Shown: in pieces, positions 7,165 to 36,971 of the stretch
Numbering within the stretch: the stretch's first letter is position 1
Layout: every line of letters starts with the position of its first letter
DNA from: Channa argus
Lineage: Eukaryota
NCBI RefSeq assembly: GCF_033026475.1
Contig: NC_090210.1
Location: forward strand, 20,383,376-20,447,375
DNA: 64,000 nt
Reading direction: 5' to 3'
Notes under the pieces: generated by a model
What the model was told of the DNA's origin: nothing
The model's input: the letters and a program-made list of their open reading frames with translations, nothing else
Database searches by the model: none
Program-made: the position numbers and the translations under genes

Positions 7165-7321
7165 ATGAACAGAGAATTAAGAAAAGCAGAAAATCTGAGA
7201 AGACATGGAGACAGAGGACAGTGGGCCAGTAAAACTGAATATATTCTGGTGGTTGCAGGAAACGTGGTCGGCCTGGGCAATGTGTGGAGATTTCCTTACC
7301 TCTGCTACAAGAATGGAGGAG
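7165..7321 (+). CDS. SLC6-A exon 1 ([23 protein letters not shown]...YKNGGG)
   Basis: ATG at 7165 preceded by cccag. Donor gtgaat at 7322. Confidence 0.8.
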
Positions 7322-10300
7322 GTGAATATTACAAAGATCAGCTGCACTTTTTTTGATGACAGATAAGTGAAAGTCATTTCCATCTGAATACATGTCTCTG
7401 TCTTCACTGTAGGTGCATTTCTGGTGCCATATGGTCTGTTGGCCCTGGTGTGTGGGATACCTCTGTTCCTAATGGAGACTTCCAGTGGTCAGTACACCCA
7501 GGAAGGATTCATCACCTGCTGGAGGAAATTGTGCCCACTGGCAGAAGGTGAGTTCGACTAAAATGTAAAACCAACAAATGAAAAGGCCTAAATTACACTG
7601 TGTATATTTACCAACCTTAAAACATAACTGACTTTCTGTTTGAACATTTTTAAAGATGAACATTTGAACATGAACATTTTTTTGAAGATTTTTAATAAAA
7701 ATGTTGTTCCAGGAATTGGGTATGGATTTTTCATGATGAAACTTTATGACTTCAGCTACATTTTAATTCAAGTCTGGGCTCTGTTCTACCTGGTGTTCTC
7801 CTTCAAAGCCCAGCTCCCCTGGGCCAGCTGTGACAACACCTGGAATACAGGTAAATTTAGACTCTAGAAATAATTTTAAATTAAAGTACTTTTAAGTAAA
7901 AGTAGTTAGAATATATAGATTTTTGTTGATGCATGTAAATACAGCATATGAGTAATAAAAGGCTAGTTATAATATGCGTGTGTACATTGTACGAATGACA
8001 GTAGTTCCACAGTAACTATTACACAATCATTCTGATTTTTTCCCAAACCCAGCTTCTTGTCTTGATCTCCAGATCCTAAATTCAACAAATGTGACAGCAA
8101 CTGCGATCAACACCACCTCTGCTGCAACTGAATTCTGGGAGTGAGTCTCATTGTGAAAATAACGTTATTTACTGTTTGTTCTACATCACTGAAGATTACT
8201 CACATTTTTGTAATATGTTATGCTGGAAATAAACTTGGAAAGAGCAATGGTTTTTTTAAATAATAATAAAAACATTTAAGTTCCATAGTTACTGAGCATG
8301 TCACATTTAGTGGATTTTTGAGGCTTTTTAAAATGTACATATTAAATATCTCCTCACCTCAGGCGACGAATGTTAGGCATGTCTGGAGGTATTGAGGAGC
8401 TGGGCAGTGTCAGATGGGAGCTGGCTTTGTGTCTTCTGGTCAGCTGGGTGTTCTGCTACTTCAGTATTTGGAAAGGTGTCAGGTCTTCTGGAAAGGTCAG
8501 TGGAAATGTTTTATGAGTTTAAAAATGCATCGCCCACTGTAAAGATTAATTAAAGTTACATATGCAGGTAAAAATGTCTACTTCTATCTAGGTAGCATAT
8601 TTCACAGCCACGTTCCCTTATGTGATGCTCCTGATACTGCTCATCAGGGGCTTGACTCTACCTGGAGCTTGGGAAGGAATCTACTTTTATCTGTATCCAG
8701 ACATAAACCACCTGGCTAACCTGGAGGTAACAAGTTTTATAGTAATATCCTAGAATTTAATGGATATGGATCAAACAAAAGTCAATTTAAAACAAACTGC
8801 TTCCATAGAAGACGATAAAAGAAGACGTTTTGGCAATTTGTGTGTCAACGAAAAGGCAGGAGGGAAAGACAAAAACCAATAATCTTAGAGATGCAACAAT
8901 CAACGATCAGATGATTCTTTTTGTTATTACAGAGAAAAAAAACATCCAACTAAATCAGGAAAACTGCCATCCACAGAGCCACACAGCTACAAAATTGAGA
9001 GCTTCTGTGTTTCTTACATTACAGGTCTGGATTGAGGCTGGATCTCAGATATTCTTCTCCTACAGTCTCACTATAGGCACCCTGAATGTTCTGGGGAGCT
9101 ACAATGACTACAACAACAACTGTTACAGGTACGTTCAGATTGCTCCAGTTTATATCACATGAACATTGGTTGTACTCTTATGTCCCTTTTCTATCTGGTC
9201 TGTCCTACCTTGACCTCTAGAGACTGCTTTTGGCTCTGTCTGCTGAACAGTGGGACCAGTTTTGTTGCTGGATTTGTAGTTTTCTCTGTACTTGGATTCA
9301 TGGCTCAGAAACAAGGTGTTAGTGTTGACAATGTGGCTGAATCAGGTATAAGTCTTCTGACATTGTGAACATTCAAACCCAAACATATATATCTACTACA
9401 TGTACATATATAGTAAATATACTATATATATACTGTATAGCATGTCACTACCAATTCTGGTGTGTAATTCTAATACACAGGTCCAGGTCTGGCCTTCATT
9501 GCTTACCCTCAGGCAACAGCTATGATGCCTTTGCCCCAGTTCTGGTCTGTCTGCTTCTTCCTGATGCTCATTCTGTTGAGTGTTGACACACATGTAAGAT
9601 TATTGGACTAATAACTGATCCATCGTACCTGAACATAGACACAGAAATCACACTAGTTGCTCGTTTCGTTCTTTCTCCAGTTTGTGACAGTAGAGAGTGT
9701 TATCACGTCTGTGAGTGACTTGTTTCCAAAGATGTTTCGTGCCCCAGTGAAGCATGAAATCTTTGTCCTCGTCATATGTTCATCTTTCTTCCTCATACAT
9801 CTCATTCTGGTAACAGAGGTAAAGAAAAGTTTGAATGAAAAATATTTCTTTTACAGTTAAAACCAAAGAAATGTTAAACTCTTTACTTTTCAAGTGCTGG
9901 CTAATATTCAGTTGTCTCTGTCCACTCTAGGGGGGAATTTATGTATTCCAACTTATAGACTATTATGGTTGCACCAGAGCCTGCCAGGACTTCATGACGG
10001 TGTGTCAATGTCTGGCTATAGGCTGGATTTTTGGTGGGTAAAATTTATTTAACAATAAACTAAATGATGCTTTTTTGGTGATGTCGTTTGACTATTCATA
10101 TATATATATAATATATATAATATGTATGTACGTACTTATATAATTTATATATAATTTACTGTTTTACTCTGCTTAACTGATCACTGCCTGTTCCTGTTAG
10201 ATTTACATTTGAATTCAATTTTCATAATAGGTAAATTAACTACGTAAACAATCTGATATTTTATCAGGTGCTGACCGGTTTTCTACCATCATTGAGGACA

Positions 10301-11264
10301 TGACAAGTCAGAAACCATCCATTTTCTTCAAACTGTGCTGGAAATACGTCATTCCTCTTCTGACCTCGGTGAGACAAAATTGAACGTCTCTTTCTTTGAA
10401 CTTTGGCATTTTATTCTGGAGTGAACTCAGGTTAGTTGTCCTTTGCTAATGCAGTGGAACTGAATTTGGTGGATTTGCATGTATCTTTCAGTTTTAGTTG
10501 GAAAAATGTCAGTAATTTCCAATAGAATTTCAAACAAATTTCATGCTCTGTAGTTATGCAATGAATTTCATTTAATAATTTACAGTTTCAGAATATAACT
10601 ATGACAGTTGAATTGTTTAAACAGATGACAGCAGATGATTTATGTACAGTGAACTTTGCTTTGTCGTTTTTACAGATTTCCTTTATCTTATACCTGGTTG
10701 ACTACCAGCATCTTAAGATCAACAACTGGTACATTTACCCTGACTGGGCGTACGCATTAGGATGGACAATGACACTTTCCTCTGTTCTCATGGTGCCACT
10801 GTGGGCAGTTGGACAGATGTGTTTGACACCAGGAACTTTCAAACAGGTCAGTGTTTAAGTAGATATTTTCCACAAAGACATAAATCACTGGAAAGCTCTG
10901 CTGGGCTTTGAGGGTTCATTTGAGAAAGGCTACACATTGATCAGACTGTAGTGGACAAAAATCCCATGAAAGCTGCTCCATAACAAAAATAGAAAAATGT
11001 GCATAGGACTACGGTGTTTCCTTATTACTTTGATTTTATGTTTACTGAACTAGAACATCCTGCAATTTCAGCAGTGGCTGAACAACATGACCTCTGTGAG
11101 AGTCACAGTTTACACATGTATTGTGGGAATTTACTCACCTTCTTCTTTTCCAGCGTTTGACAATCCTTTGTCGTCCGGTTGACAATCCAGCCTGTGAGAC
11201 GGAGAATTCAAAACAGCGAGAGGAGGGGACCACGTTGGAACTGGGGACATGCACAGAGTCCTAA
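7165..11264 (+). CDS. SLC6 family Na+/Cl- dependent transporter (GABA/taurine/creatine/betaine subfamily), copy A. Intact 14-exon gene of 583 codons
   Basis: Exon 1 has [36 protein letters not shown] (TM1 signature). EL2 has CDNTWNTASC (compare the GAT1 disulfide pair CDNPWNTDRC). Every exon aligns to TauT/GAT1/CT1 in order, for example [45 protein letters not shown] and [13 protein letters not shown]. All boundaries are GT-AG, the exon lengths sum to 1752 nt in frame, and the stop TAA is at 11262-11264. Confidence 0.85.
7413..7547 (+). CDS. SLC6-A exon 2 ([44 protein letters not shown])
   Basis: Acceptor cactgtag, donor gtgagt. Phase consistent with exon 1. Confidence 0.8.
7713..7850 (+). 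CDS. SLC6-A exon 3 ([45 protein letters not shown])
   Basis: Acceptor ttccag, donor gtaaat. Confidence 0.8.
8053..8140 (+). CDS. SLC6-A exon 4 ([32 protein letters not shown]2 with three N-glycosylation sequons)
   Basis: Acceptor aacccag at 8051-8052. The downstream acceptor at 8072 gives an in-frame stop, so the upstream AG is used. Donor gtgagt at 8141. Confidence 0.7.
8363..8495 (+). CDS. SLC6-A exon 5 ([44 protein letters not shown])
   Basis: Acceptor cacctcag, donor gtcagt. Matches TauT [44 protein letters not shown]. Confidence 0.8.
8592..8726 (+). CDS. SLC6-A exon 6 ([45 protein letters not shown])
   Basis: Acceptor tatctag, donor gtaaca. Confidence 0.8.
9025..9128 (+). CDS. SLC6-A exon 7 ([34 protein letters not shown])
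   Basis: Acceptor cattacag, donor gtacgt. Confidence 0.8.
9221..9345 (+). CDS. SLC6-A exon 8 ([42 protein letters not shown])
   Basis: Acceptor cctctag, donor gtataa. Confidence 0.8.
9481..9593 (+). CDS. SLC6-A exon 9 ([38 protein letters not shown])
   Basis: Acceptor tacacag, donor gtaaga. Confidence 0.8.
9681..9818 (+). CDS. SLC6-A exon 10 ([46 protein letters not shown])
   Basis: Acceptor ttctccag, donor gtaaag. Confidence 0.8.
9931..10033 (+). CDS. SLC6-A exon 11 ([34 protein letters not shown])
   Basis: Acceptor cactctag, donor gtgggt. The alternative donor is out of frame. Confidence 0.7.
10268..10368 (+). CDS. SLC6-A exon 12 ([34 protein letters not shown])
   Basis: Acceptor ttatcag, donor gtgaga. 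Confidence 0.75.
10676..10846 (+). CDS. SLC6-A exon 13 ([57 protein letters not shown])
   Basis: Acceptor ttttacag, donor gtcagt. Coordinates consistent with ORF track 10601-10858. Confidence 0.8.
11154..11264 (+). CDS. SLC6-A exon 14 ([36 protein letters not shown] plus stop)
   Basis: Acceptor cttttccag, TAA at 11262-11264. Confidence 0.75.
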   Translation, partial: RLTILCRPVDNPACETENSKQREEGTTLELGTCTES

Positions 11265-11579
11265 TAGTTGGACATTTCAGTTGATACATAAACTTTTGCT
11301 AATTAATAGAAGTATAAGCAGAAATACAAACTTAACTTAAAAACACTTCTATGATAAAACACCTATGATTTTTTTCAAATAAATCAAACTTTCAGTTGAT
11401 TATTTTAAGCTGTTACATTTTGAAAATGTAGTAAGGACACCCTCCTATTCAGATTTGACTTTTACATTTTGCAGGTTGGTTTGAGCCCAATTATTTATAA
11501 CGTTTCAGATGGGATACACTGGCATTTACACACTTGAAGCGCTCAGTTCTCAGGTTTTCATGTGACTTTTCTTCTCATC

Positions 11580-11760
11580 TTCTTTGCTACCTGCTGATAG
11601 TTTTAATGCGTCAGGATACTTTGGAGCATGTTTGGTGGCTTGAACATCATCTTTTCAGGTTCAGAATACGTCTCACTCTCACAGCCTCTCTCTGGCACTG
11701 TGGAAAAAAGATAATCCAGAGTCATTACATAATGCTAAATAACTAAACTAGAAATCATGC
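11580..11760 (-). pseudogene. Relic of the pold3 last coding exon (decayed duplicate)
   Basis: About 80% nucleotide identity to 36880-37010, the true pold3 last exon. Further relics at 12225-12305 (penultimate exon, resembling 37400-37470) and 12370-12485 (resembling 37540-37660). Same relative order and spacing as the real gene. Confidence 0.7.
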
Positions 11761-12224
11761 TGCAGGTTATTGAGATTTATATTATTGCGATATTTTGCTG
11801 TTTCTACAGGCATTTTTAGCATTTCCTGGTTCTTAGGGTGTATCCGGTGAAACAAACCTGTTATTTTGGACTTGACCAGAACAAATATGGCCATAGATTT
11901 GTAATGTAATAAGGTGCATCAAAAGCTCTTTAGAGAATTTTCCCTCATATACAAGTGGAAACAAAATTAGAAGCAAAAACTAAACAAATAATCATAATCA
12001 TATTCGACAGACTAATCAATATTTTTGTTATCAGTGTCATATGAAATTGTACAGTATAAATGAAAAACTAAGTATTTGCAGTGTGTTGGGGTTTTCATGA
12101 ATAAATTATATGAATATATTCATGAATAAATTATATGAACTATAAATATAACAAATGTGATTCAGTGTTAAGATGAGTTTTCAGTTAATTTTTTTCTTGC
12201 CTCGTTGTCTATAAAGGTACGTGA

Positions 12225-12485
12225 TTTGATGACTCGTCTCCTCTTCCTTGTTTTCATTTCAGAGCGACCATCATGTGGAAGGAAACCACATACACTATGA
12301 ACAAATTACATATTTCAGTGGTAAACAAAAACAACATTTAGGAATGAATGGATTGGACATTACACTTTCCAGTTTATGAATCAACACTACTATTGAGCAC
12401 TTACACATGGATGTAAAGACTCACCCTCCTTTTAAAGAATCTGGAGAAATAGTGACATGAATAGGCGACGAAGTTTTCAACTAAG
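12225..12485 (-). pseudogene. Relics of the pold3 penultimate and antepenultimate exons
   Basis: gaccatcatgtggaaggaaaccacatacactatgaacaaattacata matches gaccctgctgtggaaggaagccacatacagtatgaacaaattacata at 37420-37470. caacactactattgagcacttacacatgg matches 37548-37576. Confidence 0.6.
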
Positions 12486-12779
12486 AAAACATTGTTGGAT
12501 ATAAAAAATAAGTGACGCAAGATCTTCACCATTGTTACTATTACTTATAAATAAGGCTATATGATGCATTTTGTCGACACCCCAGGTCAGCATGGACTTA
12601 TTTGAATTTTAAGTTGCTATATTTATTATATTTATTTGTGTTGTTTTTTTCACTGCAGTTCTATTCCAGAACTGAACTGCAGTGGAAGGTGTAGACTAAA
12701 AATGCCTTGACATATTGATTTGTTATACCAGAAGCATCAGTGGTTTAATGATTAACACCTTGTAGTCTAGTACTTCCAA

Positions 12780-12960
12780 GAATCTCCAAACCTTCACAGA
12801 ATTTAGGTTAATTATAGTGACTAGCTGTGTAACCTCATATGGAGCATGACACTCCTCTCTTACCACGATGCTGCTGTGGGCAGCTGGACAGTTGTCTTTG
12901 ACATTAGGAAAGTAAGGTGTAATCAAAGTTAGAACAAAGTGTAATGTGGATTCTGTTATC
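12780..12960 (+). pseudogene. Degenerate relic of SLC6 exon 13 (penultimate exon)
   Basis: ccacgatgctgctgtgggcagctggacagttgtctttgacattaggaaag matches ccactgtgggcagttggacagatgtgtttgacaccaggaactttcaaacag. Confidence 0.55.
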
Positions 12961-13559
12961 ACAGCTTGGCAAAGAGATACCAGTTAATGCAGCAAGAAAG
13001 ATTGACATTGACACTGTTACAACTTTGAATAGTGGGGAGCGTTGGGTGAAGGGTGAGGAGGTGGGGAAGAGTGTAAGGGGCAGTGTTACTTGATGTCTTT
13101 CCCTGACAGCAGTGAAGTTCCTACTCTACAGTTACAATATTTGATCCTAAGATGAACAGAGAATTAAGAAAAGCAGAAAATCTGAGAAGACATGGAGACA
13201 GAGGACAGTGGGCCAGTAAAACCAAATATATTCTGGTTGTTGCAGGAAATGTGGCCTGAAAAAACGCCAAGCACATCAGACTTTTTATGCATCAAGAGAC
13301 TCGTATGAGAGGCTTTAGTGGAATGAACAAATAGCAATTTGGCAAGGTCATTTATTAACAACTAATCTATTGATGTGTCTTCGTTGACACATGTGAGACA
13401 CAATAACACTGACCTATCTATGTCACCATGTACTTTATCTTTGGACTCGTTAAAGTGCAACTGATATACTAAACCAAATAACATTTAGAATAAGTAACCT
13501 TAACGGTATTTAGAATTAATGCAACAAAACCCAATTTTCCATAACAAATTGTTGTTTAT

Positions 13560-13750
13560 TTATTTGGGTTGAAGGAACTTGTACTGACTCCAGGAGGGGT
13601 TATACCTCATTTATCCCCATCCCCAGCTGTGGAGTGCTGGTCCAAGCCCGGTAGAAATTGGGGAGGGTTGTGTCAGGAAGGGCATCCAGCGTAAAAACTG
13701 TGCTAAACAAACATGCTGACAAATGATCCACTGTGGCGACACTGAACTCA
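13560..13750. repeat. Teleost interspersed repeat (a second family). An inverted copy lies at 39590-39725
   Basis: ctccccagctgtggagtgctggtccaagcccgg...gggcatccagcgtaaaaactgtgctaaacaaacatgctgac...ccactgtggcgac... Reverse-complement match inside a pold3 intron. Confidence 0.6.
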
Positions 13751-13985
13751 TGGGATAAGCCGAAAGGACACCAAAAAATTATAAAAATGAGCTAGTAAAT
13801 TATCTCAAAACTAAAAACTCAAAGGTGTGTTTTCCAATACCTACTCATGTAGGGTCAGTTTTTAAAAACATGTACTAACTTCTTTCATTATAAACACACT
13901 CCATTGAGACATAACCCGGCTCTATATTCTACCTTATGTACTTCTATCCATTGACTCTGGCTTTTCTCCTGCAAACACTGTTGAT

Positions 13986-14004
13986 CTGGACCGTGTACAC
14001 ACAC

Positions 14005-14036
<32 letters not shown>
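13986..14036. repeat. (CA)n microsatellite
   Basis: Direct reading of the sequence. Confidence 0.95.
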
Positions 14037-14040
<4 letters not shown>

Positions 14041-15237
14041 CATTGACAACTATCTGGGATTGAACTGAAACTGCATTCATGTTCGCAATTCTGGATGATG
14101 CTATTATTGCTTGTTTTTGCCAAATTTCCCCTTTTTTAGGCTTTTTAAAATTTACATATACAGTATTTCTTAAACATCTCCTCACCTCAGGCGACAAGTG
14201 ACAAGGCGACCTCAGGCTTGACTCTACCTGAAGCTTGGAAAGGAATCTACTTTTATCTATCTTTTATCTGTATATTTACTGTTTGTTCTAGATCACTGAA
14301 GATTCCTCACATTTTTGTAATATGTTATGCTGGGAATAAACTTGGAAAGAGCAATGGTTTTTTTAAATAATAATAAAAACATTTAGGTTCCATAGTTACT
14401 GAGCATGTAACATTTAGTGGATTTTTGAGGCCTTTTAAAATGTACATATTAAATATCTCCTCACCTCAGGCTCATCAGGGGCTTGACTCTACCTGTAGCT
14501 TGGGAAGGAATCTACTTTTATCTGTATCCAGACATAAAACACCTGGCTAACCTGGAGGTAAAAAGTTTTATGGTAATATCCTAGAATATAAGGAATTTGG
14601 ATCAAACAAAAGTCAATTTAAAACAAACTGCTTCCATAGGACATATATAAAAGAAGACGTTTTGGCAATTTGTGTGTCAAGCCAAAAACCAGGAGGGAAA
14701 GACAAAAACCAATAATCTTAGAGATGCAACAATCAACGATCAGATGATTCTTTTTGTTATCACAGAGAAAAAAAAACATCCACCTAAATCAGCAAAACTG
14801 CCATCCACAGAGCCACACAGCTACAGAAATTGAGAGCTTCTGTGTTTCTTACATTACAGGTCTGGATTGAGGCTGGATCTCAGATATTCTTCTCCTACAG
14901 TCTCACTATAGGCACCCTGAATGTTCTGGGGAGCTACAATGACTACAACAACAACTGTTACAGGTACGTTCAGATCGCTCCAGTTTATATCACATGAACA
15001 TTGGTTGTACTCTTATGTCCCTTTTCTATCTGGTCTGTCCTACCTTGACCTCTAGAGACTGCTTTTGGCTCTGTCTGCTGAACAGTGCGACCAGTTTTTT
15101 TGCTTGATTTGTAGTTTTCTCTGTACTTGGATTCATGGCTCAGAAACAAGGTGTTAGTGTTGACAATGTGGCTGAATCAGGTATAAGTCTTCTGACATTG
15201 TGAACATTCAAACCCAAACATATATATCTAGTACATG

Positions 15238-15268
<31 letters not shown>

Positions 15269-15692
15269 TGTATAGCATGTCACTACCAATTCTGGTGTGT
15301 AATTCTAATACACAGGTCCAGTCCTGGTCTGTCTGCTTCTTCCTGATGCTCATTCTGTTGAGTGTTGACACACATGTAGGATTATTGGACTAAAAACTGA
15401 TCCATCGTAGCTGAACATAGACACAGAAATCACACTAGTTGCTCGTTTCGTTTTTTCCCCAGTTTGTTACAGTAGAGAGTGTTATCACATCTGTGAGTGA
15501 CTTGTTCCCCCAGATGTTTCGTGCCCCAGTGAAGCATAAAATCTTTGTCCTCGTCATATGTTCATCTTTGTTCCTCATACATCTCATTCTGGTCACAGAG
15601 GTAAAGAAAGGTTTAAATTAAAAATATTTCTTTTACAGTTAAAACCAAAGAAATGTTAAACTCTTTACTTTTGAAGTGCTGGCTAATATTCA

Positions 15693-18082
15693 TAGGAGCA
15701 AGGTTCAAGTTGTTCTACCATGGGTCAGATAGGAAAAGAAATGGAGTAGGAGTTATCCTGAAAGGAGTTTTTGAGGAATGTTCTAGAGGTGAACAGAATA
15801 TCAGACAGGTTGATCTGATACTGGAAAGTCTGAAGCTGGAAACTGAAGGTGTTATGTTTAATGTTGTGAGTGGTTATGCCCCACAGGTAGGACGTGAGTG
15901 AGAAGAGAAGGAGAAATTCATGAGTGAGTTAGATGAAGTGATTCAGAACATTCCCAGAGGTGAGAGAGTGGTGATTGGGGCAGATTTCAATAGACATGTA
16001 GGTGAAGTGAACAGAGGTGATGAGAATTTGATGGGCAGGTTTGGTCTTCAGGACAGGAACGCAGAAGGACAAATGGTGGTAGACTTTGCAAAGAGGATGG
16101 AAATGACTGTAGTAAACACTTTCTTCCAGAAGAGGCAGGAACATAGGGTGACGTATAAGAGCGGAAGTAGAAGCACTCAGTTGGACAACATCTTGTGTAG
16201 ACGTTGTAATCTGAAAGAGACCAGTGACTGTAAAGTATTGGTAGGGGAGAGTGTAGCCAGACAACACAGGATGGTGGTGTGTAAAATGATGCTGGTGGTG
16301 AGGAAGATAAGGAGGACTAAGGCAGAGCAGAGGACGAAGTGGTGGAAGTTGAAAAAGGAAGAATGTTGTGTAGTTTTCAGGGAGGAACTGAGACAGACTC
16401 TGGGTGGTCAGGAAGTGCTCCCAGATGACTGGACCACTACAGCTAATGTGATCAGGGAGACAGGTAGGAGGGTACTCTGGGTGTCATCTAGAAAGAGGAA
16501 AGTGGACAAGGAGATTTGGTGGTGGAACGAGGAAGTTCAGGAGTGTATTCAGAGAAAGAGGTTAGCTAAGAAGAAGTGGGACACTGAGAAGACTGAAGTA
16601 GACAGAAGTACAGGGAGATATAGCGTAAGGTGAAGGTAGAGGTGGCAAATTCCAAACAAAGGGCATATGAGGACTTGTATGTTAGGTTGGACACTAAGGA
16701 GGGAGAGGTGGATTTGTACAGGTTGGCCAGACAAAGAGATAGAGATGGGAAGGATGTGCAGCAGGTTAGTGTGATTAAAGATAAGGATGGAAATGTATTG
16801 ACAGGTGCCAGGAGTTTGATGGGAAGATGGAAGGATTGATGAATGAGGAAAATGAAAGGGAGAGTGAGAGTGAAGTGAGGAGGAGGTTGAAGAGGATGAA
16901 GAGTGGAAAGGCAGTTGGTCCTGATAACATACCTGTGGAGGTATGGAAGTGTCTAGGAGAGGTGGCAGTAGAGTTTCTCACTAGTTTGTTTAACAAGATC
17001 TTGGAGAGTGAGAGGATGCCCGAGGACTGGAGGAGAAGTGTACTGGTGCCCATTTTTAAGAAACAGGGAGATGTGCAGAGCTGTGGCAGCTACAGAGGAA
17101 TAAAGCTGATGAGCCACACAATGAAGTTGTGGGAAAGAGTAGTGGAAGCTCGGCTAAGGGCAGAGGTGAACATTTGTGAGCAGCAATATGGTTTCATGCC
17201 TAGAAAGAGTACAACAGATACAGTATTTGATTTGAAGATGCTGATGGAGAAGCACAGAGAAGGTCACAGAGAGTTGCATTGTGTCTACGTAGATTTAGAG
17301 AAAGCGTATGACAGGGTGCCGAGAGAGGAGCTGTGGTTTTGTATGAGGACGTCTGGAGTGGCAGAGAAGTATGTTAGAGTGGTGCAGGACATGTATGAGA
17401 GCTGTAAGACCGTGGTGAGGTGCTGTAGGTGTGACAGAGGAGTTCAAGGTGGAGGTGGGTCTGCATCAAGGATCTGCTCTGAGCCCCTTCTTGTTTGCTC
17501 TGGTGATGGACAGGCTGACAGATGAGGTTAGACAGGAATATCTGTGGACTATGATGTTTGCAGATGACATTGTGATTTGTAGTGAGAGCAGGGAGCAGGT
17601 GGAGGAAAATCTAACAGTGAGAATGAAAGGAAAGATGTTCAAGACGGTGGTGAGACCAGAGATGTTGTTCGGCTTAGAGACAGTGGCACTGAAGAAAAGA
17701 CAGGAGGCAGAGCTGGAGGTAGCAGAGCTTAAGATTTTGAGGTTCTCTTTGGGAGTGACGAGGATGGACAGGATCAGGAATGAGGACATCAGAGGGACAG
17801 CTCATGTTAGATGTGTTGGAGATAAAGTCAGAGAGGCCAGAATGAGGTGGTTTGGACATGTTCAGAGAGACTGTGAATATATCGGTAGAAGGATGCTGAG
17901 GTTGGAGCTGCCAGGCAGGAGGTATAGAGGAAGATCAAAGAGGAGATTAATGGATGTAGTGAGAGAGGACATGAAGTTAGTTGGTGTGTTTGAAGCGGAT
18001 GCAGAGGACAGGGTTAGATGGAGGCACATGATTTGCTCTGGAGACCCCTGAAAGGGAACAGGCCAAGGAAAAGAAGAAGATT
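15693..18082 (+). mobile_element. 5'-truncated non-LTR retrotransposon (apurinic-endonuclease plus reverse-transcriptase LINE, RTE-like or related), frameshifted
   Basis: ORFs 15920-16633, 16827-17525 and 17431-18051. Endonuclease-like VIGADFNRHVGE. RT motifs KSGKAVGPDNIPVEVWK, YGFMPRKSTTD, HCVYVDLEKAYDRV, QGSALSPFLF and FADDIVIC. C-terminal MRWFGHVQR...PGRRYRGRSKRRLMDV. The junctions fall exactly where homology to copy A is lost (15692) and regained (18083). Confidence 0.75.
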
Positions 18083-20134
18083 ACAGTTGAATTGTTTAAA
18101 CAGATGACAGCAGATGATTTATGTACAGTGAACTTTGCTTTGTCATTTTTACAGATTTCCTTTATCTTATACCTGGTTGACTACCAGCATCTTAAGATCA
18201 ACAACTGGTACATTTACCCTGACTGGGCGTACGCATTAGGATGGACAATGACACTTTCCTCTGTTCTCATGGTGCCACTGTGGGCAGTTGGACAGATGTG
18301 TTTGACACCAGGAACTTTCAAACAGGTCAGTGTTTAAGTAGATATTTTCCACAAAGACATAAATCAGTGGAAAGCTCTGCTGGGCTTTGAGGGTTCATTT
18401 GAGAAAGGCTACACATTGATCAGACTGTAGTGGACAAAAATCCCATGAAAGCTGCTCCATAACAAAAATAGAAAAATGTGCATAGGACTACGGTGTTTCC
18501 TTATTACTTTGATTTTATGTTTACTGAACTAGAACATCCTGCAATTTCAGCAGTGGCTGAACAACATGACCTCTGTGAGAGTCACAGTTTACACATGTAT
18601 TGTGGGAATTTACTCACCTTCTTCTTTTCCAGCGTTTGACAATCCTTTGTCGTCCGGTTGACAATCCAGCCTGTGAGACGGAGAATTCAAAACAGCGAGA
18701 GGAGGGGACCACGTTGGAACTGGGGACATGCACAGAGTCCTAATAGTTGGACATTTCAGTTGATACATAAACTTTTGCTAATTAATAGAAGTATAAGCAG
18801 AAATTCAAACTTAACTTAAAAACATTTTTAGCATTTCTTGGTTCTTAGGGTGTATCCAGTTAAACAAACCTGTTATTTTGGTGTTGAATAGAACAATTAT
18901 GGCCATAGATTTGTTGTGTAATAAAGTGTATCAAAAGTTCTTTAAATAACTTTTATTTTAACTCAAATACAAGTTATTATTATTATTATTATAAAATTAG
19001 AAGCACATTTAAATACAACACACGTGCAAGTATCAGACACATAATTGACAAATCAGAAGTAATTCTCAATTAAATGACTGTTTTGATCACTGGGTTGAAG
19101 ATTTTAATAAACTGTGTATGTTCACTGTTTTGAAGTTCTCCAGATTAAAAAAAAATCTAAATATATTTGAGGTTTGAATACAACATGTCTCCTTTAGCAT
19201 GTTTTTTAAAAATAACAAACACAGATAATCATCAAATATGTGACAGATTAAGCAAGGTCCTTTTTAGCAGTTTCACATAAACATAAACCTCTTTAAATTT
19301 GTGGGGTTTTTTTTGTGTGTGTGAATAAATTCTACGTAGTATAAATCCAGCAAATGTGATTCATTCATTCATACATAACCCAAAACCTTTCCGCGTTTGA
19401 TAAGATCTCATCAGTTTAATGCATTAAAGTTTTTAAACTAAGTTGTAAGCGTTTATTGGTTGGAGAAAATAAAATTGTTTCTTTACATTTCAAACCACAT
19501 TCCCTCAATTCTGTGCATTTGGAATATGGTTTCATTTAAATTAGCTATAGAATTATTCGTTTTTCATGATAAAATCACCAAAGTACTTGAGTTGAGTTTC
19601 AACGCAGACGTAGCTCAGAAACGCTTGTTCTCAGTGCAGCAACACTACTGACTAGTTTAAGACACTTACCCGTTCGTCCTCTACACAAACTGAAGCAAGT
19701 TTCAGGTTCAGGGAGCAGAAGAGGTCTTCTGGTTGTAACAGCCTGTTAAAGGCTCAGTCACCAGTTAGCTTGGTAAGGGTCTAGATTGTTTTCAAGAGAT
19801 TAACGTCACTGTATTAATATAATTTAAAGAGGTAACATTGCTGTTGATGTATCCTAAATACATCAATCCCTGTTTGCCTTTCAAAGCTGCAACTAAATAG
19901 CCCACAGGTGGGGAAGAATAAATGGCAAAAGTCCTCTAGTTAAATATTCACGGATGTCGTCATTCTCTTGGACAGAGTAAAAAACTTGTGGACAAACACG
20001 CTGGGGAGGCAGTAAATGTACTATGGAGTCCCGCCCAGGTTTATTGTATGTGTGGGAAACACTGCATACTCCTGCTTACATAGCGGCATAAAGAGAATTT
20101 GAAACATGACATCCGGAGCTCTATAGGCCTGTTG

Positions 20135-20300
20135 TTATCGTTTGAACATTCTCCATTTTGAACAAAGAAAACAAAGGTGGACATACAAAAATAAGTGACT
20201 CACCACCTTCATCACTGCTGTCCCTGGGTGAGATTTCTTAGCTCTTCTTCTTTCCTCCTCTTTGCTGTCAGAATCCTCTATTCGTTTTGCTTCAAAGATA
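20135..20300 (-). pseudogene. Relic of the pold3 acidic/basic exon (true exon at 38646-38749), frameshifted
   Basis: Minus-strand ...EDSDSKEEERRRAKK... matches pold3 ...EDSDSEEEKMEKKKRRRIKK.... The flanking intron sequence also matches (gtgactcacc). A 2-bp insertion breaks the frame. Confidence 0.65.
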
Positions 20301-20439
20301 GAAAGGCCATAGGTTGCCAAATCTAAAAAGTTACTTGTTATTTGTTTAGCAAAATTTGATTTTGCGTATTGTAGCAAAAAAAAGTCTCAGAAGTAAGTTG
20401 CAGTGCAAGGATTTAGTACAACATATAGTTTAGTAATTC

Positions 20440-20560
20440 CCTGTATATCCTGTCCCTCAGATTTCTTTTATCTTGCACCTTGTTACATCAAGTCTGGGCT
20501 CTCTTCTACCTGGAATGCAGGTAGAATTGTAAACTAATGAGAACTAAAAGCAGTTATACA
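20440..20560 (+). pseudogene. Chimeric SLC6 relic (exon 13 start fused to the exon 3 end and intron 3)
   Basis: cagatttcttttatcttgcaccttgttac matches the exon 13 start. caagtctgggctctcttctacctgg...aatgcaggtagaattgtaaactaatgagaactaaaagcag matches 26930-27060. Confidence 0.5.
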
Positions 20561-20800
20561 ACCCCAATTTCAAAGAAGTTGGGACAATGGGAAAATATAA
20601 ATAACTACAAAATGCAATTATTTGCAAATTTCATCATCCCATATTTTACTCACAATAGAACATAAACAACATATCAAATGTTGAAACTGAGACATTTTAT
20701 CATTACAAATGTCAGTGATTCCACTAATCCATCATAACCATGACAGTCTTACTGTCTTACTTCCCAAACCCAGCTACTTGTCTTGTCTCTAACTTCAACA
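20555..20800. mobile_element. Tc1/mariner-family terminal inverted repeat fragment (same family as 30020-30830 and 45620-45670)
   Basis: acaaccccaatttcaaagaagttgggac...atgttgaaactgagacatttt matches, in inverse orientation, 30760-30830. Confidence 0.55.
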
Positions 20801-21019
20801 TATATCATAAAAGATGGATTACAGCACTCGACAGGACTCGAGTCTGTCTCAGGCAAAACACAGAGAGGCAAACACTGACCGACAACCAGAGTCACCAATG
20901 ACCTGACCAATTACCAGTGCTGCCTTGTCCTTGGTCTTTTGGCTTTCGGTCTTAATTAAAAAGCTGTTCTGTTGAGTTGACACAAGGTGGACAGTGAAGA
21001 ATATCCCATTTCTTTGCCT

Positions 21020-22500
21020 TCAGAAACTCTTGTTTAGCTTGGGCTTGATGTTCTGGGTCATTACCCATCTCCAATATGAAGCAGTTATCAGTTCTGCAGC
21101 ATTTGGCGGAATATGAACTGAGTGCACTGCCGTACACACTTCAGAATTTCTCCTGCTACATTTATTGGCCATCAGGTCATCACAGTAAATACCATTCACC
21201 TGGTTCTTTGGCAGCCATACTTGCCCATGCCATAACACTGCCTCTGCCATGTCTGACAGATGATGTGGTATGATTCAAATTATGAGCGGTTTCTTTTTCT
21301 TCTCTATAGTTTTCTCTTCTTATCATTCTGGTAAAAGCTAATTTTGGTTTTATCAGTTCAAAGAATCATGAATCCAAAACTCATCAGGCTTTTGTAGGTG
21401 TTTTCGGAAAAAGTCTAATCTGGCCCTTCTGTCCTTGAGCTTTACCAGTGGTCAGCACCTTGTTGTGAAGCCTCTGTATTTGCATTCATAAAGCCATCTT
21501 TTGATTAAAGACTTGACTTGACTTCACAATGACACAACAACCTCCTCAAGAGTCTTCTTGACTTGGCTAGATGTTGTGAAAGAAATGATGAAATGCACCA
21601 AACTGTTGATAGAATTCCGCAGTCATCCATCCTGTGGTCTCCCAGGCCTTTTACTGTGGTTGCCAGTGAATTCCTTCTTTTGCTGACACAACAAACTGTT
21701 GTGTTGGCCCCTTGCTGTTGCTGATCCTTTGGAGCATGTTTGGTGGCTTGAACATCATCTTTTCAGGTTCAGAATACGTCTCACTCTCATAGCCTCTCCC
21801 TGTCACTGGGGAAAAAAGATAAAAAGATAGAGTCATTACATAATGCTAAATTGGCCCCTCTTTTTTCCCTTCTCTTATGTGGGTTTATTTGGTTTTTTAG
21901 CGTAGCCTCCTTTACTTGCATAAACACTTTCACCTTACATTTCCATTTAGTCATTTAGTAGACTCTTTTATCCAAAGCGACCTCAAGCTGACAGTTCCAG
22001 CAACAATTGTAAAATGGAAAGGTACACTTAGAACCACCTCCAGGCTTTTTATTGTTAGAACCCTTTCAAAACATCTAGCCAAGTCAGGAAGACTCTTGAG
22101 GAGGTTGGTGTGTCATTGTGAAAGTCTTTAATCAAAAGATGGATTTATGAATGTAAATAAAGAGGCTTCACAACAAGGTGCTAAGCACTGGTAAAGCTCA
22201 AGAACAGAAAGTCCCGAAAACACCTACAAAAGCCTGACTAGTTCGGGGTCAAGAAAAAAAAAAATACGGAGAAGAAAAGAAACAGCTCACAATTCAAATC
22301 ATACTATATTATCTGTCACACATAGTAGAGGTAGAGTTATGACATGGGCAAGTATGGCTGCCACACAGAGTACAGCCCAATACACCTCAGAATTCATCCT
22401 GCTACGTTTATCACCAGTCAGGTCGTCAATAAACACCAGTGACCTGGTTCCACTGGCAGCCATACATGACATACATGACTTCACTCACATGTAGCGTGTT
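21020..22500. repeat. Large inverted repeat: two Tc1-like transposase fragments head to head (arms roughly 21020-21600 and 22040-22500) with a spacer of about 450 bp that contains a pold3 last-exon relic (21700-21850)
   Basis: 21404-21585 is the reverse complement of 22040-22215. 21230-21300 is the reverse complement of 22290-22360. Arm translations resemble Tc1 transposase (...LYECKYRGFTTRCKPL...). The relic encodes VTGRGYESETYSEPE, compare pold3 VTEKGYESESYSENED. Confidence 0.7.
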
Positions 22501-22519
22501 TCATTTCAAAATCAATGTG

Positions 22520-25500
22520 ATGGTGTACAGAGGCCAAATGCCATAAATCTTATCATCGTTCCAAAACGAAAGAATAATTGTACGATAAAGGAATTTGTAG
22601 AAACACACTTAATAACTCCACTATAGGTGCTATACATCAGCAATCAGGTGTGTTTAAAATAAAACTAGTTAGGACATGTTTTTCTGAAACTTGGGAGCTC
22701 TATATGCTGTTTCAACCCCCGAGTCAAGTCTTCTCAACGCCTCCTCCTTCCTTGCATCCTGCATCTGTGAGAAAACCCCTGGGAAAGGAGTTTAAATGCT
22801 AAATGAGTTTAAAACGTTTATAGGGTGAATTACAACCAATCGTTGAGGATGCATCGAACTTTGAAAGGGGTCTAGGCAAATCTGTTAACCTTCACATATT
22901 TCTTTCGTCTTGTGCCTGGTTGATTACTACACAAAATCACATATGTTACACATCTGTGATTATGTGTAACATAATACAGAGCACAACGCTCTCCTCTCTT
23001 ACCACAGTGCAACTGTTGCCAGCTGGACGGATACGTTCATTAGGAAACTTCAGAGTACATTGGAATCAAAATTAAAAAAGCAGAACACCAAAGCAGAGAG
23101 ATACCAACTAATGCAGGAATAACAACGGACATTGACATTTTTACAACTTTGACCATGGTCCTATATCTTCTCCCATATGTAAAAACGCTAAGGTTTAGCT
23201 GATTCATTAGGACAGTGGTTCCCAAACTGTGGGGGTGTCCCTGGAGTTACAGCAAGGGGGGGCAACAACACCTGAATGTAAACACTGTATAGTAGCCCTG
23301 CCACACTGCTAGCATAGATACGTTTGTGAAAAGAAAGCCAAGGAAACGCAAGGCTGGTGGAAATTTAAAGGCTGCAGGTACCAAGACAAAGATATGAAAA
23401 TAGGATGAGGCATATGTTGATCTCAGTTTTACCAGCACGACTGTTGGTAATAAGAAGAGGCCACAGTTTGTCGTGTGTCTCAAAATTTAGGATTCTGATA
23501 GTATGAAGCCAAACAAGTTAAGACGCCACTTGGAGACTTAGAAATACTGTATTTCTATCCACAAAAAGGGGCCCAGCAGAAAAAGTTTGGGAACCACTGC
23601 ACTGCAGACTTTCTGTCACCTTAATTCCATGTCTCCTCATAATCTAAATCACAACCCATTCTGGTATTGTAAAACAAACATTTTTATTTTCTATCATTTT
23701 AAATTCAATATCTAGATTGAGGACAAAGGTTGGGAGTGGTGGGTTGAGGGAGGAGTGAGGGTGAGCGAGAGGAATCACAGTCAACTGATTTTAATAAGCC
23801 CCTTTGAGCCCCACACAGTGAATAAGAACCCTTTCACAACATCTAGCCAAGTCAAGCAGACTCTTGAGGAGGTTGGTTTGTCATTGTGAAAGTCTTTAAT
23901 CAAAAGATGGCTTTATGAATGCAAATACAGAGGCTTCACAACAAGGTGCTAAGCACTGGTAAAGCTCAAGAACAGAAAGTCCAGATGAGACTTTGCCCGA
24001 AAACACCTACAAAGTTCTGGGTCAATGATTCTTTGGTTTGATAAAACAAAAATTAACGTGTACCAGAATCATGAGAAGAAAAAAAAAATACGGAGAAGAA
24101 AAGAAACAGCTCATAATTCAAATCATACTATATTATCTGTCAAACATATAGAGGCAGTTTTATGGCATGGGCGAGTACATTAGACTTCCAGGCCTTTTAC
24201 TGTGGTTGCTCGTTAATTCCTTCTTTTGCTGACACAACAAACTGTTGCGTTGGCCTCTCCCATTTATTTTGCCATCCCTTATGTGGGTTTATTTTGTTTT
24301 TTTAGCCTAGATTCCTTTATTTCATAAACACCTCGTTGACCTCAAGCTGACAGCTCCAGCAAACAACTGTTAAATGCTAAGGTAAACAAGGCAAAAGCAG
24401 AAGAACCCGAGTTATTCCTGCATTTCCTGTGATTGGCTTATGCCTTTTTAAACTTTGGGCAGTTTTTGAAGCAGAAACCCCAGAAAACCTGAAGATCTGT
24501 TCCCTAATTACTTCATGACTAATCAGAAATTAAAAGACCATGAAGTTCCGAGTGTACCTTTGTGTTTGGCATTCGTTCACTGGTATTGTCAACATGAGGT
24601 CGAAACAGGTGTCTATGAAAAACTAAATAAACCCACATGAGAAATAGCAAAAACATTGGGAGTGGTAGCTGATGGCAGAATTGTGTCCACAAGGAAAAAG
24701 AGCCCTTTCACAACATCTAGCCAAGTCAAGCAGACTCTTGAGGAGGTTGGTTTGTCATTGTGAAAGTCTTTAATCAAAAGATGGCTTTATGAATGCAAAT
24801 ACAGAGGCTTCACAACAAGGTGCTAACCACTGGTAAAGCTCAAGAACAGAAAGGCCAGATTAGACTTTACCCGAAAACACCTACAAAAGCCTGATGAGTT
24901 TGGGGTCAATGATTCTTTGGGTTTGATAAAACAAAAATTAACTAAAATCATGACTAACCAGATGATAACCAGAATCATGAGAAGAAAGAATTAAAGAGAA
25001 GAAAAGAAACAGCTCATAATTCAAATCATGCCACATTATCTGTCACACATAGTAGAGGTAGAGTTATGGCCAGAGGCCAAATGCCATAAATCTTATCATC
25101 GTTCCAAAACGAAAGAATAATTGTACGATAAAGGAATTTGTAGAAACACACTTAATAACTCCACTATAGGTGCTATACATCAGCAATCAGGTGTGTTTAA
25201 AATAAAACTAGTTAGGACATGTTTTTCTGAAACTTGGGAGCTCTATATGCTGTTTCAACCCCCGTGTCAAGTCTTCTCAACGCCTCCTCCTTCCTTACAT
25301 CCAGCATCTGAGAGAAAACCCCTGGGAAAGGAGTTTAAATGCTAAATGAGTTTAAAACTTACATAGTGTGAATGCAGCGGTGTAAAGCATAACTTTATTA
25401 TTAGTTATGTATAAGTTATACTTTAGACTTAGTTTGTATTTACAACCAATCGTTGAGGATGCATCGAACTTTGAAAGGGGTCTAGGCAAACCTGTTAACC

Positions 25501-26350
25501 TTCACATAGTTCTTTCGTCTTGTGCCTGGTTGACTATTACACACAATCACATATGTTACACATCTGTGATTATGTGTAACATAATACAGAGCACAACACT
25601 CTCCTCTCTTACCACAGTGCAACTGTTGGCAGCTGGATGGATACGTTCATTAGGAAACTTCAGAGTACAGTGGAATCAAAATTAAAAAAGCAGAACACCA
25701 AAGCAGAGAGATACCAACTAATGCAGGAATAACAACGGACATTGACATTTTTACAACTTTGACCATGGTCCTATATCTTCTCCCATATGTAAAAACGCTA
25801 AGGTTTAGCTGATTCATTAGAACAGTGGTTCCCACACAATCAAATATCTTACACATTTGTGATTATGTGTAATAATACAGAGCACAACACTCTCCTCTCT
25901 TACCACAGTGCAACTGTTGGTAGCTGGATGGATACGTTTATTAGGAAACTGCAAAGCAGAGAGATACTAACTAATGTAGGAATAACTACGGGCATTGACA
26001 TTTTTACAATAAGCCAAACAAGTTAAGACGCCACTTGGGAGACTTAGAAATATTTCTACCCACAAAAAGGGGCCCAGCACGAAAAGTTTGGGAACCACTC
26101 CACTGCAGACTCTCTGTCACCTCAATTCCATGTCTCCTCATAATCTAAGTCACAACCCATTCTGGTATTGTATCTGGTATTAAATTCAATATCTAAGTTG
26201 AGGGTAAATGTTGGGAGTGGTGGGTTGAGGGAGGAGCGAGGGTGAGAGAGAGGAGGTAAGACAGAGTTTGGTCAGAGTGTTATGGGCAGTGTTACTTGAT
26301 GTCTTTCCCTTACAGCAGTGAAGTCTTTACACTATAGTAGGATTTTGTGA
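22520..26350. repeat. Local segmental duplication (22520-23780 is similar to 25070-26280) carrying degenerate SLC6 exon 13 relics and the SLC6 upstream region
   Basis: 22560-22800 matches 25100-25345. 23150-23240 matches 25750-25830. 23520-23770 matches 26020-26270. Exon 13 relics lie at 22870-23050, 25480-25670 and 25860-25960. 26270-26350 matches 13060-13160, the 5' flank of exon 1. Confidence 0.65.
23820..25030 (+). mobile_element. Further Tc1-like transposase fragment copies (23820-24130 and 24700-25030)
   Basis: Repeats of the 22040-22260 block. Translation ...LWFDKTKINVYQNHEKKK matches Tc1 LWSDETKIELFGHNHKRYVWRK. Confidence 0.6.
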
Positions 26351-26357
26351 TCCCAAG

Positions 26358-35799: not shown

Positions 35800-36199
35800 G
35801 AGGAGGGGGCCACAGTGGAACTGAGGACATCTGCAGAGGCCCAGGAGCTGTAAATTTCAGCTGATATACAAAGTTCTAATAATTAGTAACAATTAGAGGG
35901 GTGCCTATATTTCACACATTTCTATTACACAGCACCTGAAAGAAACTACAAATAGATACATCACACCTTGTGCAGATTATTTGAAGGCGTTTACATTGTG
36001 GTGGGGATACTCTCCTCTTCAACATGACCTTTACATTTTATAGATTGGGTTAAGCCTACACAATGAATTATTTCGGATTAAATACACGGACATTGACATA
36101 CTTAAAAGTATTCACTGTAGATATTCTACCTTTTTGGGTTTTCAAAACTAGAATCAAAGCCTATAACTACGTTTAGGTGTAGTAAATAACATGGTACAA

Positions 36200-36765: not shown

Positions 36766-36971
36766 TTATTTCTTATGGAAAAATCCCATAATTGAAGCTT
36801 GTTTAGTTCCTTTATTTGTGTTTGCTGAAGTTTTCTTGTGACTTTTCTTCTCATCTTCTTTGCTACTTGCTGATATATTTGATGGGACAGGATCCTTTGG
36901 AGCTTGTTTAGTGGCTTGAAGATCATCTTCATTTTCAGAGTACGATTCACTCTCATAGCCTTTCTCTGTCA
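36766..36971 (-). CDS. pold3: pold3 last coding exon including the PIP box and stop
   Basis: Acceptor ccaaag at 36973-36972. Stop TAA (minus strand) ending at 36766. QASIMGFF fits the PCNA-interaction consensus Qxx[ILM]xx[FY][FY]. Confidence 0.85.

Follow-up and report, generated by a model that had tools for sequence, protein, structure and literature searches.

Introduction

Non-processed pseudogene fragments that derive from tandem segmental duplication are colinear with the exons and introns of a parent gene, lie next to it, lack its promoter and 5' exons, and carry frameshifts, deletions and neutral substitutions. Processed pseudogenes are likewise non-functional copies of the coding sequence of a parent gene. 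Tandem arrays of GAT-group SLC6 transporter genes evolve by tandem duplication (PMC3849432).

Here, we describe relics of the 3' part of pold3 that lie within an array of SLC6 genes in Channa argus, in a window of 64,000 nucleotides (contig NC_090210.1). These relics display every property listed above for non-processed pseudogene fragments and do not differ from them in any essential respect: they are what a DNA-level tandem duplication ordinarily leaves behind when it runs into a neighbouring gene. Local details are the re-duplication of a relic together with an SLC6 unit and the relocation of one 128-bp piece. Unlike processed pseudogenes, the relics keep introns 11, 10 and 9, have no poly(A) and adjoin their parent in the duplicated block. 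Compared with what is described for GAT-group arrays, namely tandem duplication and concerted evolution of the transporters, the subject here is a by-product in the neighbouring gene. A literature search on the locus returned nothing specific.

Results

The SLC6 array and the convergent pold3 gene

The C. argus Pold3 protein (P0001) matched the window with 100% identity by tblastn, and this match was used to set the exon limits of pold3. The gene occupies the minus strand and converges on three GAT3-like SLC6 copies of the plus strand. The exons from which the relics derive, all on the minus strand, are exon 12 (36769-36972; P0001 residues 372-439, 100% identity), exon 11 (37345-37422; residues 346-371, translation checked), exon 10 (37571-37657; residues 317-345, 100% identity) and exon 9, the acidic/basic exon (38647-38751; residues 282-316, 100% identity). 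Exon 12, the source of the exon 12 part of relic A and of relic D, is the last coding exon and ends in the PIP box QASIMGFF.

A PDB search placed the SLC6 copies of the window in the GAT3/BGT1/TauT-like group. SLC6-A (7165-11264, plus strand), a GAT3-like transporter characterised by tblastn with P0121 and P0122, the PDB search and a polyadenylation signal scan, has every coding segment and a stop codon at 11262-11264. SLC6-B (13152-18743, plus strand) is a pseudogene: gaps in its tblastn coverage showed that several exons are missing, and a match to RVT_1 in Pfam accompanies a LINE inserted at 15620-18050. SLC6-C (26358-35799, plus strand) is the annotated C. argus GAT3-like gene (P0122; tblastn identity 96-100% per exon) and is the copy convergent with pold3. 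SLC6 arrays adjoin pold3 in Channa, Anabas, Mastacembelus and Betta.

pold3-derived sequences are restricted to the SLC6 array

Comparison of the pold3 3' block (36769-38800) with the whole window returned four relic sites as its sole matches, each of them within the SLC6 array and on the strand of pold3. The best blastn matches were at 11549-12433 (E 1.6e-75) and 21723-21850 (E 2.4e-24), followed by 20157-20287 (E 9e-19) and 18818-18972 (E 7e-18). In full, the relic tracts cover 11549-12447 and 12472-12534 downstream of SLC6-A (relic A), 18823-19363 and 20125-20306 downstream of SLC6-B (relic B), and 21723-21850 (relic D). Exons 12, 11 and 9 of Pold3 were recovered among the relics by tblastn, and exons 1-8 were absent. 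An earlier note on this DNA had listed five stretches of pold3-derived sequence; all five contain such sequence, on the minus strand and far beyond chance, with boundaries that lie 20-60 bases from those originally given. The stretch 12370-12485, described there as an exon, does include half of exon 10 and is otherwise mostly intron 10. The intron 11 relic downstream of SLC6-B (18823-19363) and the exon 9 junction at 12472-12534 are additional to that list.

Relic A begins 285 bp past the SLC6-A stop codon. Its exon 12 part (11549-11698, minus strand) is 85% identical to 36825-36972, is matched by tblastn in two frames and carries a +2 bp frameshift. It retains 148 of 204 coding bases, having lost the terminal 56, which include the PIP box, together with the 3' UTR. 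Intron 11 follows at 11699-12200 (minus strand), as established by the colinear alignment and by alignments of three and seven sequences. Exon 11 (12201-12278, minus strand; 58% amino acid identity by tblastn, E 6e-4; 79% nucleotide identity) has a 10-bp deletion that takes away its 3' end and the splice donor. The next tract (12279-12447, minus strand; aligned to 37423-37615) comprises intron 10 (12279-12403) and, at about 12404-12447, approximately the 3' half of exon 10. Deletion has removed most of exon 10, intron 9 and exon 9 from this copy, and the relic resumes at the intron 9/exon 9 junction (12472-12534, minus strand), which is 79% identical to 20156-20217 in relic B and aligns to 38577-38659 in pold3.

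Relic B consists of two tracts, both on the minus strand. The first (18823-19363) is derived from intron 11; 18823-18954 is 88% identical to 11811-11941 in relic A, and 18818-18972 is 69% identical to 37032-37184 in pold3. The second (20125-20306) aligns to 38539-38765; it takes in intron 9 sequence, an exon 9 relic and, beyond it, 14 bp from the start of intron 8. Its exon 9 (20201-20296; tblastn E 0.03) shows 90.6% identity over aligned exon columns, carries five indels and retains the splice donor GTGAGT. Relics of exons 12, 11 and 10 were not found in the copy downstream of SLC6-B.

The relics are non-processed duplicates

Relic A (11549-12447) could be aligned with 36825-37615 over 927 columns that run through exon 12, intron 11, exon 11, intron 10 and exon 10. 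This colinearity through exons and introns indicates a non-processed duplicate, neither a repeat nor a retrocopy. A retrocopy was rejected since introns are kept and no poly(A) is found at the ends of relic A or relic D.

The similarity might alternatively reflect an interspersed repeat common to pold3 and the array, without being derived from exons. The two regions do share one true transposon-like piece, which lies in inverted orientation at 13613-13770 and 39595-39712. The relics, however, give on translation Pold3 peptide whose conservation extends from Channa to Anabas and Mastacembelus, are colinear over three exons and two introns, and occur within the window in one orientation only and inside the array only. 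Dispersed copies in two orientations were not found within the window, and the repeat explanation was rejected as having next to no probability. The earlier note had already considered it unlikely, and intron colinearity, the encoded Pold3 peptide and the restriction of the matches to the array agree with that judgement.

The 3' flank of SLC6-A (11092-11538) is homologous to that of SLC6-C (35680-36106). This flank homology, followed by colinear pold3 sequence, indicates that a tandem DNA duplication ran into the 3' part of pold3. The order of the relics is exon 12, exon 11, exon 10 and exon 9 after SLC6-A, and intron 11 and exon 9 after SLC6-B, on the expected strand. The strand and exon order that were earlier proposed to fit duplication into a convergent pold3 gene are found downstream of both SLC6-A and SLC6-B.

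A probable single capture of pold3 sequence, followed by re-duplication

According to the model of the earlier note, each SLC6 duplication ran separately from the SLC6 5' flank into pold3, so that every relic would be an independent capture. The presence of relics after both SLC6-A and SLC6-B, with the expected strand and order, fits this model. Relics A and B are nevertheless nearer to each other than to pold3: they are 88% identical in the intron 11 core, against 69-75% for either of them and pold3, and they have in common derived states of intron 11, both substitutions and an indel, that are absent from pold3. Likewise, the +2 bp frameshift of relics A and D is missing from the pold3 genes of four species, and relic D has no unit context. 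The derived changes common to relics A, B and D indicate a single capture of pold3 sequence followed by re-duplication with SLC6, and make separate captures quite unlikely. Duplication into the 3' part of pold3 thus stands as proposed, and a fresh capture for each unit does not.

The duplication breakpoints, which the earlier note took to be recorded in the relics, survive as minimum bounds only, because of later deletions and transposon insertions. The duplication extended at least 14 bp into pold3 intron 8 (38765). We detected no significant homology past the exon 9 relic into intron 8 and no significant shared junction between 12535-12791 in copy A and 20307-21120 in copy B, so the true breakpoints are not recoverable.

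Over all aligned sites, relic A matches C. argus pold3 alone at 58 and C. striata pold3 alone at 62, and the two pold3 genes agree against relic A at 117. Among polarised exon sites, the relic has the Channa state by 8:1 at Channa-derived sites; at those derived in C. argus it is ancestral at 11 and C. argus-like at 4. Taken together, these sequence comparisons date the capture to around the divergence of C. argus from C. striata. No relic was found between the two SLC6 copies of C. striata by tblastn or word-7 blastn, nor in the arrays of Mastacembelus and Betta. As the dating places the capture at or before the split, the lack of a relic in C. striata calls for either a loss in that species or an origin just after the split.

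Homogenisation has brought the SLC6 copies themselves to 97-99% in parts. In its 5' flank and gene body, SLC6-A is of the type of the upstream C. striata copy, and it is chimeric: it resembles this copy up to ~11376 and the flank of SLC6-C from ~11400. Since a C. striata-type body is followed by an SLC6-C-like flank and a relic, the history has to include one or more additional recombination events.

Relic D, a probable secondary insertion

Relic D is an isolated 128-bp piece (21723-21850, minus strand) made of an exon 12 relic and the first bases of intron 11. It is 91.5% identical to 11615-11740 in relic A and 80% identical to 36891-37013 in pold3, and the +2 bp frameshift is common to relics D and A. 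Its flanks show no homology to pold3, to SLC6 or to the flanks of relic A. Reading of the sequence revealed a 9-bp direct repeat, TTGGCCCCT, with its left copy at 21704-21712 and its right copy, again TTGGCCCCT, at 21851-21859. The window has a single case of a 9-mer repeated at such a spacing, and the chance rate is about 1e-5 per position. Sequence matches to both flanks (21639-21712 with 24185-24258; 21855-21927 with 24259-24331) identified a paralogous empty site at 24185-24331, where the flanks of relic D join at a single TTGGCCTCT without an insert. Both features expected of an insertion are thus present: direct repeats at the two ends, and a paralogous site that is empty and has one copy of the repeat. 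The insertion as a whole measures 147 bp, and the window also has a duplication at 22057-26254.

Relic D could instead be an in-situ remnant of another duplication unit, with the fragment lost from 24185-24331 by precise deletion between the 9-bp repeats. Precise deletion between short direct repeats is a known event, relic D has the strand of the other relics, and a duplicated SLC6 5' flank (22528-23773) follows shortly downstream of it. Against this reading, which we consider unlikely, the flanks are homologous neither to those of relic A nor to those of pold3 exon 12, despite 91.5% identity to relic A in the core, and the homology stops exactly at the right 9-bp repeat and 10 bp inside the left one. 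The 9-bp flanking repeat, the empty paralogous site and the lack of unit homology indicate that relic D arose when a relic fragment was inserted secondarily, and that it is neither a unit boundary nor the start of another unit.

As in filler DNA, in templated insertions at repaired double-strand breaks and in Pack-MULE capture, relic D is a short copy of nearby sequence, and its target duplication and 10 extra bases at one junction are like those of filler DNA or transposon capture. Unlike in Pack-MULE-type capture, relic D lacks terminal inverted repeats, a poly(A) tail and any identifiable carrier element; terminal inverted repeats, poly(A) and a LINE or SINE tail were looked for in 21713-21850 and none was visible.

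A proposed history of the locus

We infer the following order of rearrangements, and the mechanism of the 128-bp insertion, from the comparisons above. A DNA-level tandem duplication would have copied a block that took in the SLC6 gene nearest to pold3, at least about 0.8 kb of sequence upstream of this gene, its 3' flank and the 3' part of the convergent pold3 up to intron 8. Through this event, which we place in the Channa lineage near the separation of C. argus and C. striata, two SLC6 genes would have come to flank a promoter-less copy of pold3 truncated to exons 12 to 9 and their introns. Re-duplication of this relic along with SLC6 may then have produced relics A and B. Gene conversion or unequal crossing-over would have homogenised and reshuffled the SLC6 bodies, and the relics, decaying neutrally over the same period, would have been shortened by deletions. 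Later, a 128-bp piece of an exon 12 relic was probably copied into the transposon-rich spacer, 1.4 kb past relic B, with a 9-bp target duplication.

The relics decay neutrally

Substitutions in the relics fall at codon positions 1, 2 and 3 in numbers of 25, 23 and 16, and relic-specific change is alike in exon-derived (39/268) and intron-derived columns (78/460). This even distribution across codon positions indicates neutral decay. Disabling lesions comprise frameshifts, truncations, the lost exon 11 splice donor and indels. The relics thus show exon homology, introns kept in order, lesions and no codon-position bias, and the stretches very probably represent non-processed pold3 pseudogene fragments without a function of their own, the lack of function being judged solely from sequence decay.

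The relics might have been kept for a function, either as antisense pold3 sequence in SLC6-A read-through transcripts or as a regulatory element. A perfect 30-nt match to pold3 exon 12 persists at 11561-11590, and the 285 bp that separate relic A from the SLC6-A stop codon are few. Their substitution pattern is neutral, however, with many indels; relics A and B have lost different parts, and C. striata is without a relic. Furthermore, SLC6-A has its first AATAAA past the stop codon at 11378, 170 bp ahead of relic A, and only read-through or alternative polyadenylation would bring relic A into the SLC6-A 3' UTR. Retention for function is accordingly very improbable. No match to known RNA families was found in Rfam for 11000-26300.

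We give similarly little credence to two further possibilities: that SLC6-A forms read-through or alternatively polyadenylated transcripts with ~150 nt antisense to pold3 exon 12, the perfect 30-nt match among them, or that relic D might be the first visible copy of a mobile fragment derived from an exon. If the former were true, antisense SLC6-A transcripts could pair with pold3 mRNA or give small RNAs, and expression of the transporter array would be tied to that of a replication/repair subunit. The relics give no indication of new biology.

Annotators should mask the relics as fragments of a pold3 pseudogene and keep them out of SLC6 and pold3 gene models. The relics also provide an unconverted time-stamp for the growth of the SLC6 array, having diverged like neutral DNA while the SLC6 copies were homogenised. 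In addition, intron 11 of relic A retains ~48 bp that are missing from the present C. argus pold3 intron, a fossil of an ancestral piece of intron 11 that has gone from the living gene.

Relics of the pold3 3' exons lie between the SLC6 copies

Minus-strand open frames at 36.7-41.3 kb, joined into one query, matched DNA polymerase delta subunit 3 proteins, the best-matching one being that of Channa argus. Exon-by-exon alignment of this protein (P0001, 439 aa) to the window at 100% identity placed twelve pold3 exons on the minus strand, including exon 12 (36769-36972; C-terminal end QASIMGFFHKK), exon 11 (37345-37422), exon 10 (37571-37657) and the acidic/basic exon 9 (38647-38751). The plus strand carries three GAT3/BGT1/TauT-like SLC6 transporter copies. 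SLC6-A (7165-11264) is missing no coding segment; SLC6-B (13152-18743) is a pseudogene without several exons (those for ~aa 35-233 and 423-478 are absent); SLC6-C (26358-35799), the annotated C. argus gene (protein P0122), is convergent with pold3, with about 970 bp separating its last exon from the stop codon of pold3. The strong GC skew at 16-18 kb is accounted for by a LINE inside SLC6-B (~15620-18050) that contains a reverse-transcriptase domain (RVT_1). The last intron of SLC6-C, 304 bp long in SLC6-A, holds a ~3.4 kb insertion (32233-35680; G+C 46%, above its surroundings), in which a 180-aa open frame (33614-34153) gave no match in a Pfam search.

We compared the window with itself and searched it with the pold3 3' block (36769-38800). 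Exactly four other matches were found in the window, all on the same strand and all between SLC6 copies: 11549-12433 (to 36825-37602, E = 1.6e-75), 18818-18972 (to 37032-37184, E = 7e-18), 20157-20287 (to 38598-38742, E = 9e-19) and 21723-21850 (to 36891-37013, E = 2e-24). In full alignment, the relic following SLC6-A (relic A) is colinear with 36825-37615 over 11549-12447, from exon 12 through intron 11, exon 11 and intron 10 into exon 10, and a further piece at 12472-12534 corresponds to the intron 9/exon 9 junction. The relic following SLC6-B (relic B) comprises intron 11 sequence (18823-19363) and an intron 9-exon 9-intron 8 segment (20125-20306); no exon 12, 11 or 10 relic is left downstream of SLC6-B. 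Both searches confirmed the observation of an earlier note, which had listed five pold3 relic ranges in the SLC6 array: all five contain pold3-derived sequence, with coordinates 20-60 bases off, and the pieces at 12472-12534 and 18823-19363 had been overlooked. Its interpretation, that the ranges mark the ends of duplication units, was partly supported.

The relics are decayed, non-processed duplicates

Because introns are kept and exon order and spacing preserved, the relics are non-processed duplicates rather than repeats or retrocopies. The left-hand neighbour of relic A points the same way: it is SLC6-A 3' flank (11092-11538) with homology to the 3' flank of SLC6-C (35680-36106), which places relic A in its native context. 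An element shared, in opposite orientations, by SLC6-B (13613-13770) and pold3 intron 7 (39595-39712), 93% identical over 46 bp, was rejected as a relic: C. striata pold3 has no counterpart of 39572-39761, which makes the element an interspersed repeat. It illustrates what a shared repeat, the counter-case named in the earlier note, would resemble.

Relic A lost the pold3 3' UTR, together with the final 56 coding bases, to a 718-bp deletion. The exon 12 relic is frameshifted by +2 bp and has no PIP-box end, the exon 11 relic lost its 3' end and splice donor to a 10-bp deletion, half of exon 10 is missing, and exon 9 in relic B carries five indels. Substitutions relative to pold3 are evenly spread over codon positions 1, 2 and 3 (25/23/16). 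When three sequences are aligned, C. striata pold3 among them, changes specific to the relic are about as frequent in columns derived from exons (39/268) as in those derived from introns (78/460). This pattern is neutral. Exon cores are more similar to pold3 (85%, 79% and 91% identity) than intron parts (about 65-70%) because the living gene alone is under constraint. No Rfam family matched across the relic region, and the sequences examined give no sign that the relics function. These pieces amount to an ordinary duplicated pseudogene in fragments and add one more case to a well-known class. In the living C. argus pold3 gene, intron 11 is without ~48 bp (at 37013-37014) that relic A still has, as do the pold3 genes of C. 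striata, Anabas and Mastacembelus; relic A retains the ancestral state of this intron.

A single capture near the C. argus/C. striata split

Relics A and B have derived substitutions and one indel in common in intron 11, where they are 88% identical to each other versus 69-75% to pold3. The +2 bp frameshift is common to relic A and the isolated copy at 21723-21850 (relic D), and is not found in pold3 of C. argus, C. striata, Anabas or Mastacembelus. These derived states argue for one pold3 capture, the relic later being copied along with SLC6. The earlier note had each duplication reaching into pold3; the pold3 origin of the relics stands, but separate captures do not fit the states they share.

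Dating used C. striata pold3 (locus L002). Over all aligned sites, relic A sides with C. argus pold3 alone at 58 and with C. striata pold3 alone at 62, and it differs from a state common to the two genes at 117 (42, 50 and 78, respectively, in introns only). At exon sites polarised with Anabas and Mastacembelus as outgroups, Channa-derived states are found in the relic 8:1. Where C. argus is derived, the relic carries the ancestral state at 11 sites and the C. argus state at 4; where C. striata is derived, it carries the ancestral state at 9 sites and the C. striata state at 2. These counts place the capture on the Channa lineage near the C. argus/C. striata split, either before or after it. 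For the SLC6 array the relics can serve as an unconverted clock, and they are a caveat for annotation.

No relic was found between the two SLC6 copies that precede pold3 in C. striata, nor in Betta (two SLC6 copies) or Mastacembelus (at least three). Anabas testudineus has at least four copies, and directly after the third a 95-bp stretch (locus L003, 14735-14829) matches the species' own pold3 exon 12/intron 11 junction (blastn E = 1.5e-7; 0/50 shuffled queries reached 1e-5). Since the Channa relic is later than Channa-specific substitutions, this piece, on thin evidence, may represent an independent event of the same kind.

Relic D bears the signature of an insertion

Identity between relic D and relic A (11615-11740) is 91.5%, but the flanks of relic D have no homology to those of relic A or of pold3 exon 12. 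The two flanks (21639-21712 and 21855-21927) instead align with a single uninterrupted paralogous segment, 24185-24331. Compared with this segment, the relic D locus is longer by 147 bp: 10 bases of unrelated sequence, the relic itself (128 bp) and one of the two copies of a direct repeat of 9 bp, TTGGCCCCT. The repeat lies at 21704-21712 and 21851-21859; the paralogous segment carries a single TTGGCCTCT. A 9-mer recurring at this spacing occurs once in the whole window. By this signature, relic D appears to be an insertion with a target-site duplication; the repeat and the empty paralogous segment speak against the proposal that the 21.7-kb exon 12 copy is a further duplication unit. Neither a poly(A) tail nor terminal inverted repeats were found. 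Its source belongs to the relic lineage, and may be the exon 12 relic now absent after SLC6-B, where the equivalent of 11352-11812 is deleted. Around relic D, at 21.1-26.3 kb, the sequence is made up of Tc1-like fragments and a tandem duplication of recent date (22057-23773 versus 24699-26254, 94-97% identity) of a Tc1-like fragment and the SLC6-C 5' flank. The first copy has no SLC6 body, and several Tc1-like pieces in both orientations lie between 21.1 and 25.1 kb.

Mixed SLC6 affinities and the bounds of the duplicated unit

Over exon 1, intron 1 and exon 2, SLC6-A and SLC6-C are 97-98.8% identical (7145-7869 versus 26338-27031), and in C. striata the two copies reach 99.3% identity in this 5' part (L002 1482-1900 versus 9981-10400), whereas orthologues between the species are only 85-87% identical. 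This contrast indicates that the SLC6 5' parts evolve in concert. Identity between SLC6-A and SLC6-C drops to 76-87% toward the 3' end. In the exon 13 region, SLC6-A and SLC6-B group with the upstream C. striata copy and SLC6-C with the proximal one. SLC6-A resembles the upstream C. striata copy in its 5' flank, body and ~110 bp past the stop, until about 11376; from about 11400 its flank is of SLC6-C type (matching 35960-36106), followed by the relic. SLC6-A thus looks chimeric, with a switch in 11376-11400. The SLC6-B 5' flank is also of SLC6-C type (12792-13254 matches 25566-26460). These mixed affinities imply at least one unequal crossover or conversion after capture.

The furthest surviving pold3 homology is at 38765, 14 bp into intron 8. 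This position and the 12792/25566 flank match are minimum bounds only for the duplicated unit; the earlier view that the relics record the duplication breakpoints was not borne out, as the junctions are unrecognisable. A 750-bp tract is 99.2-99.5% identical between SLC6-A (10601-11351) and SLC6-B (18080-18830), versus 88-97% elsewhere; in SLC6-B it begins straight after the LINE and stops exactly where the equivalent of 11352-11812 is missing, which suggests that conversion or repair took place there recently. Short pieces similar to SLC6 exon 13 (78% to 10762-10835) are found in the 5' flanking sequence of SLC6-B and SLC6-C (12817-12911, 22930-23049, 25540-25659 and 25833-25950), and are relics of an older partial SLC6 copy.

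Relic A and the SLC6-A 3' UTR

The SLC6-A stop codon (11262-11264) is followed by a first AATAAA at 11378, the point at which homology with the C. striata 3' flank stops. As this signal precedes the start of relic A (11549), the relic probably falls beyond the main 3' UTR. AATAAA recurs at 12100 and 12125, and read-through of SLC6-A transcripts into the relic may occur. A 30-nt perfect match to pold3 exon 12 persists at 11561-11590.
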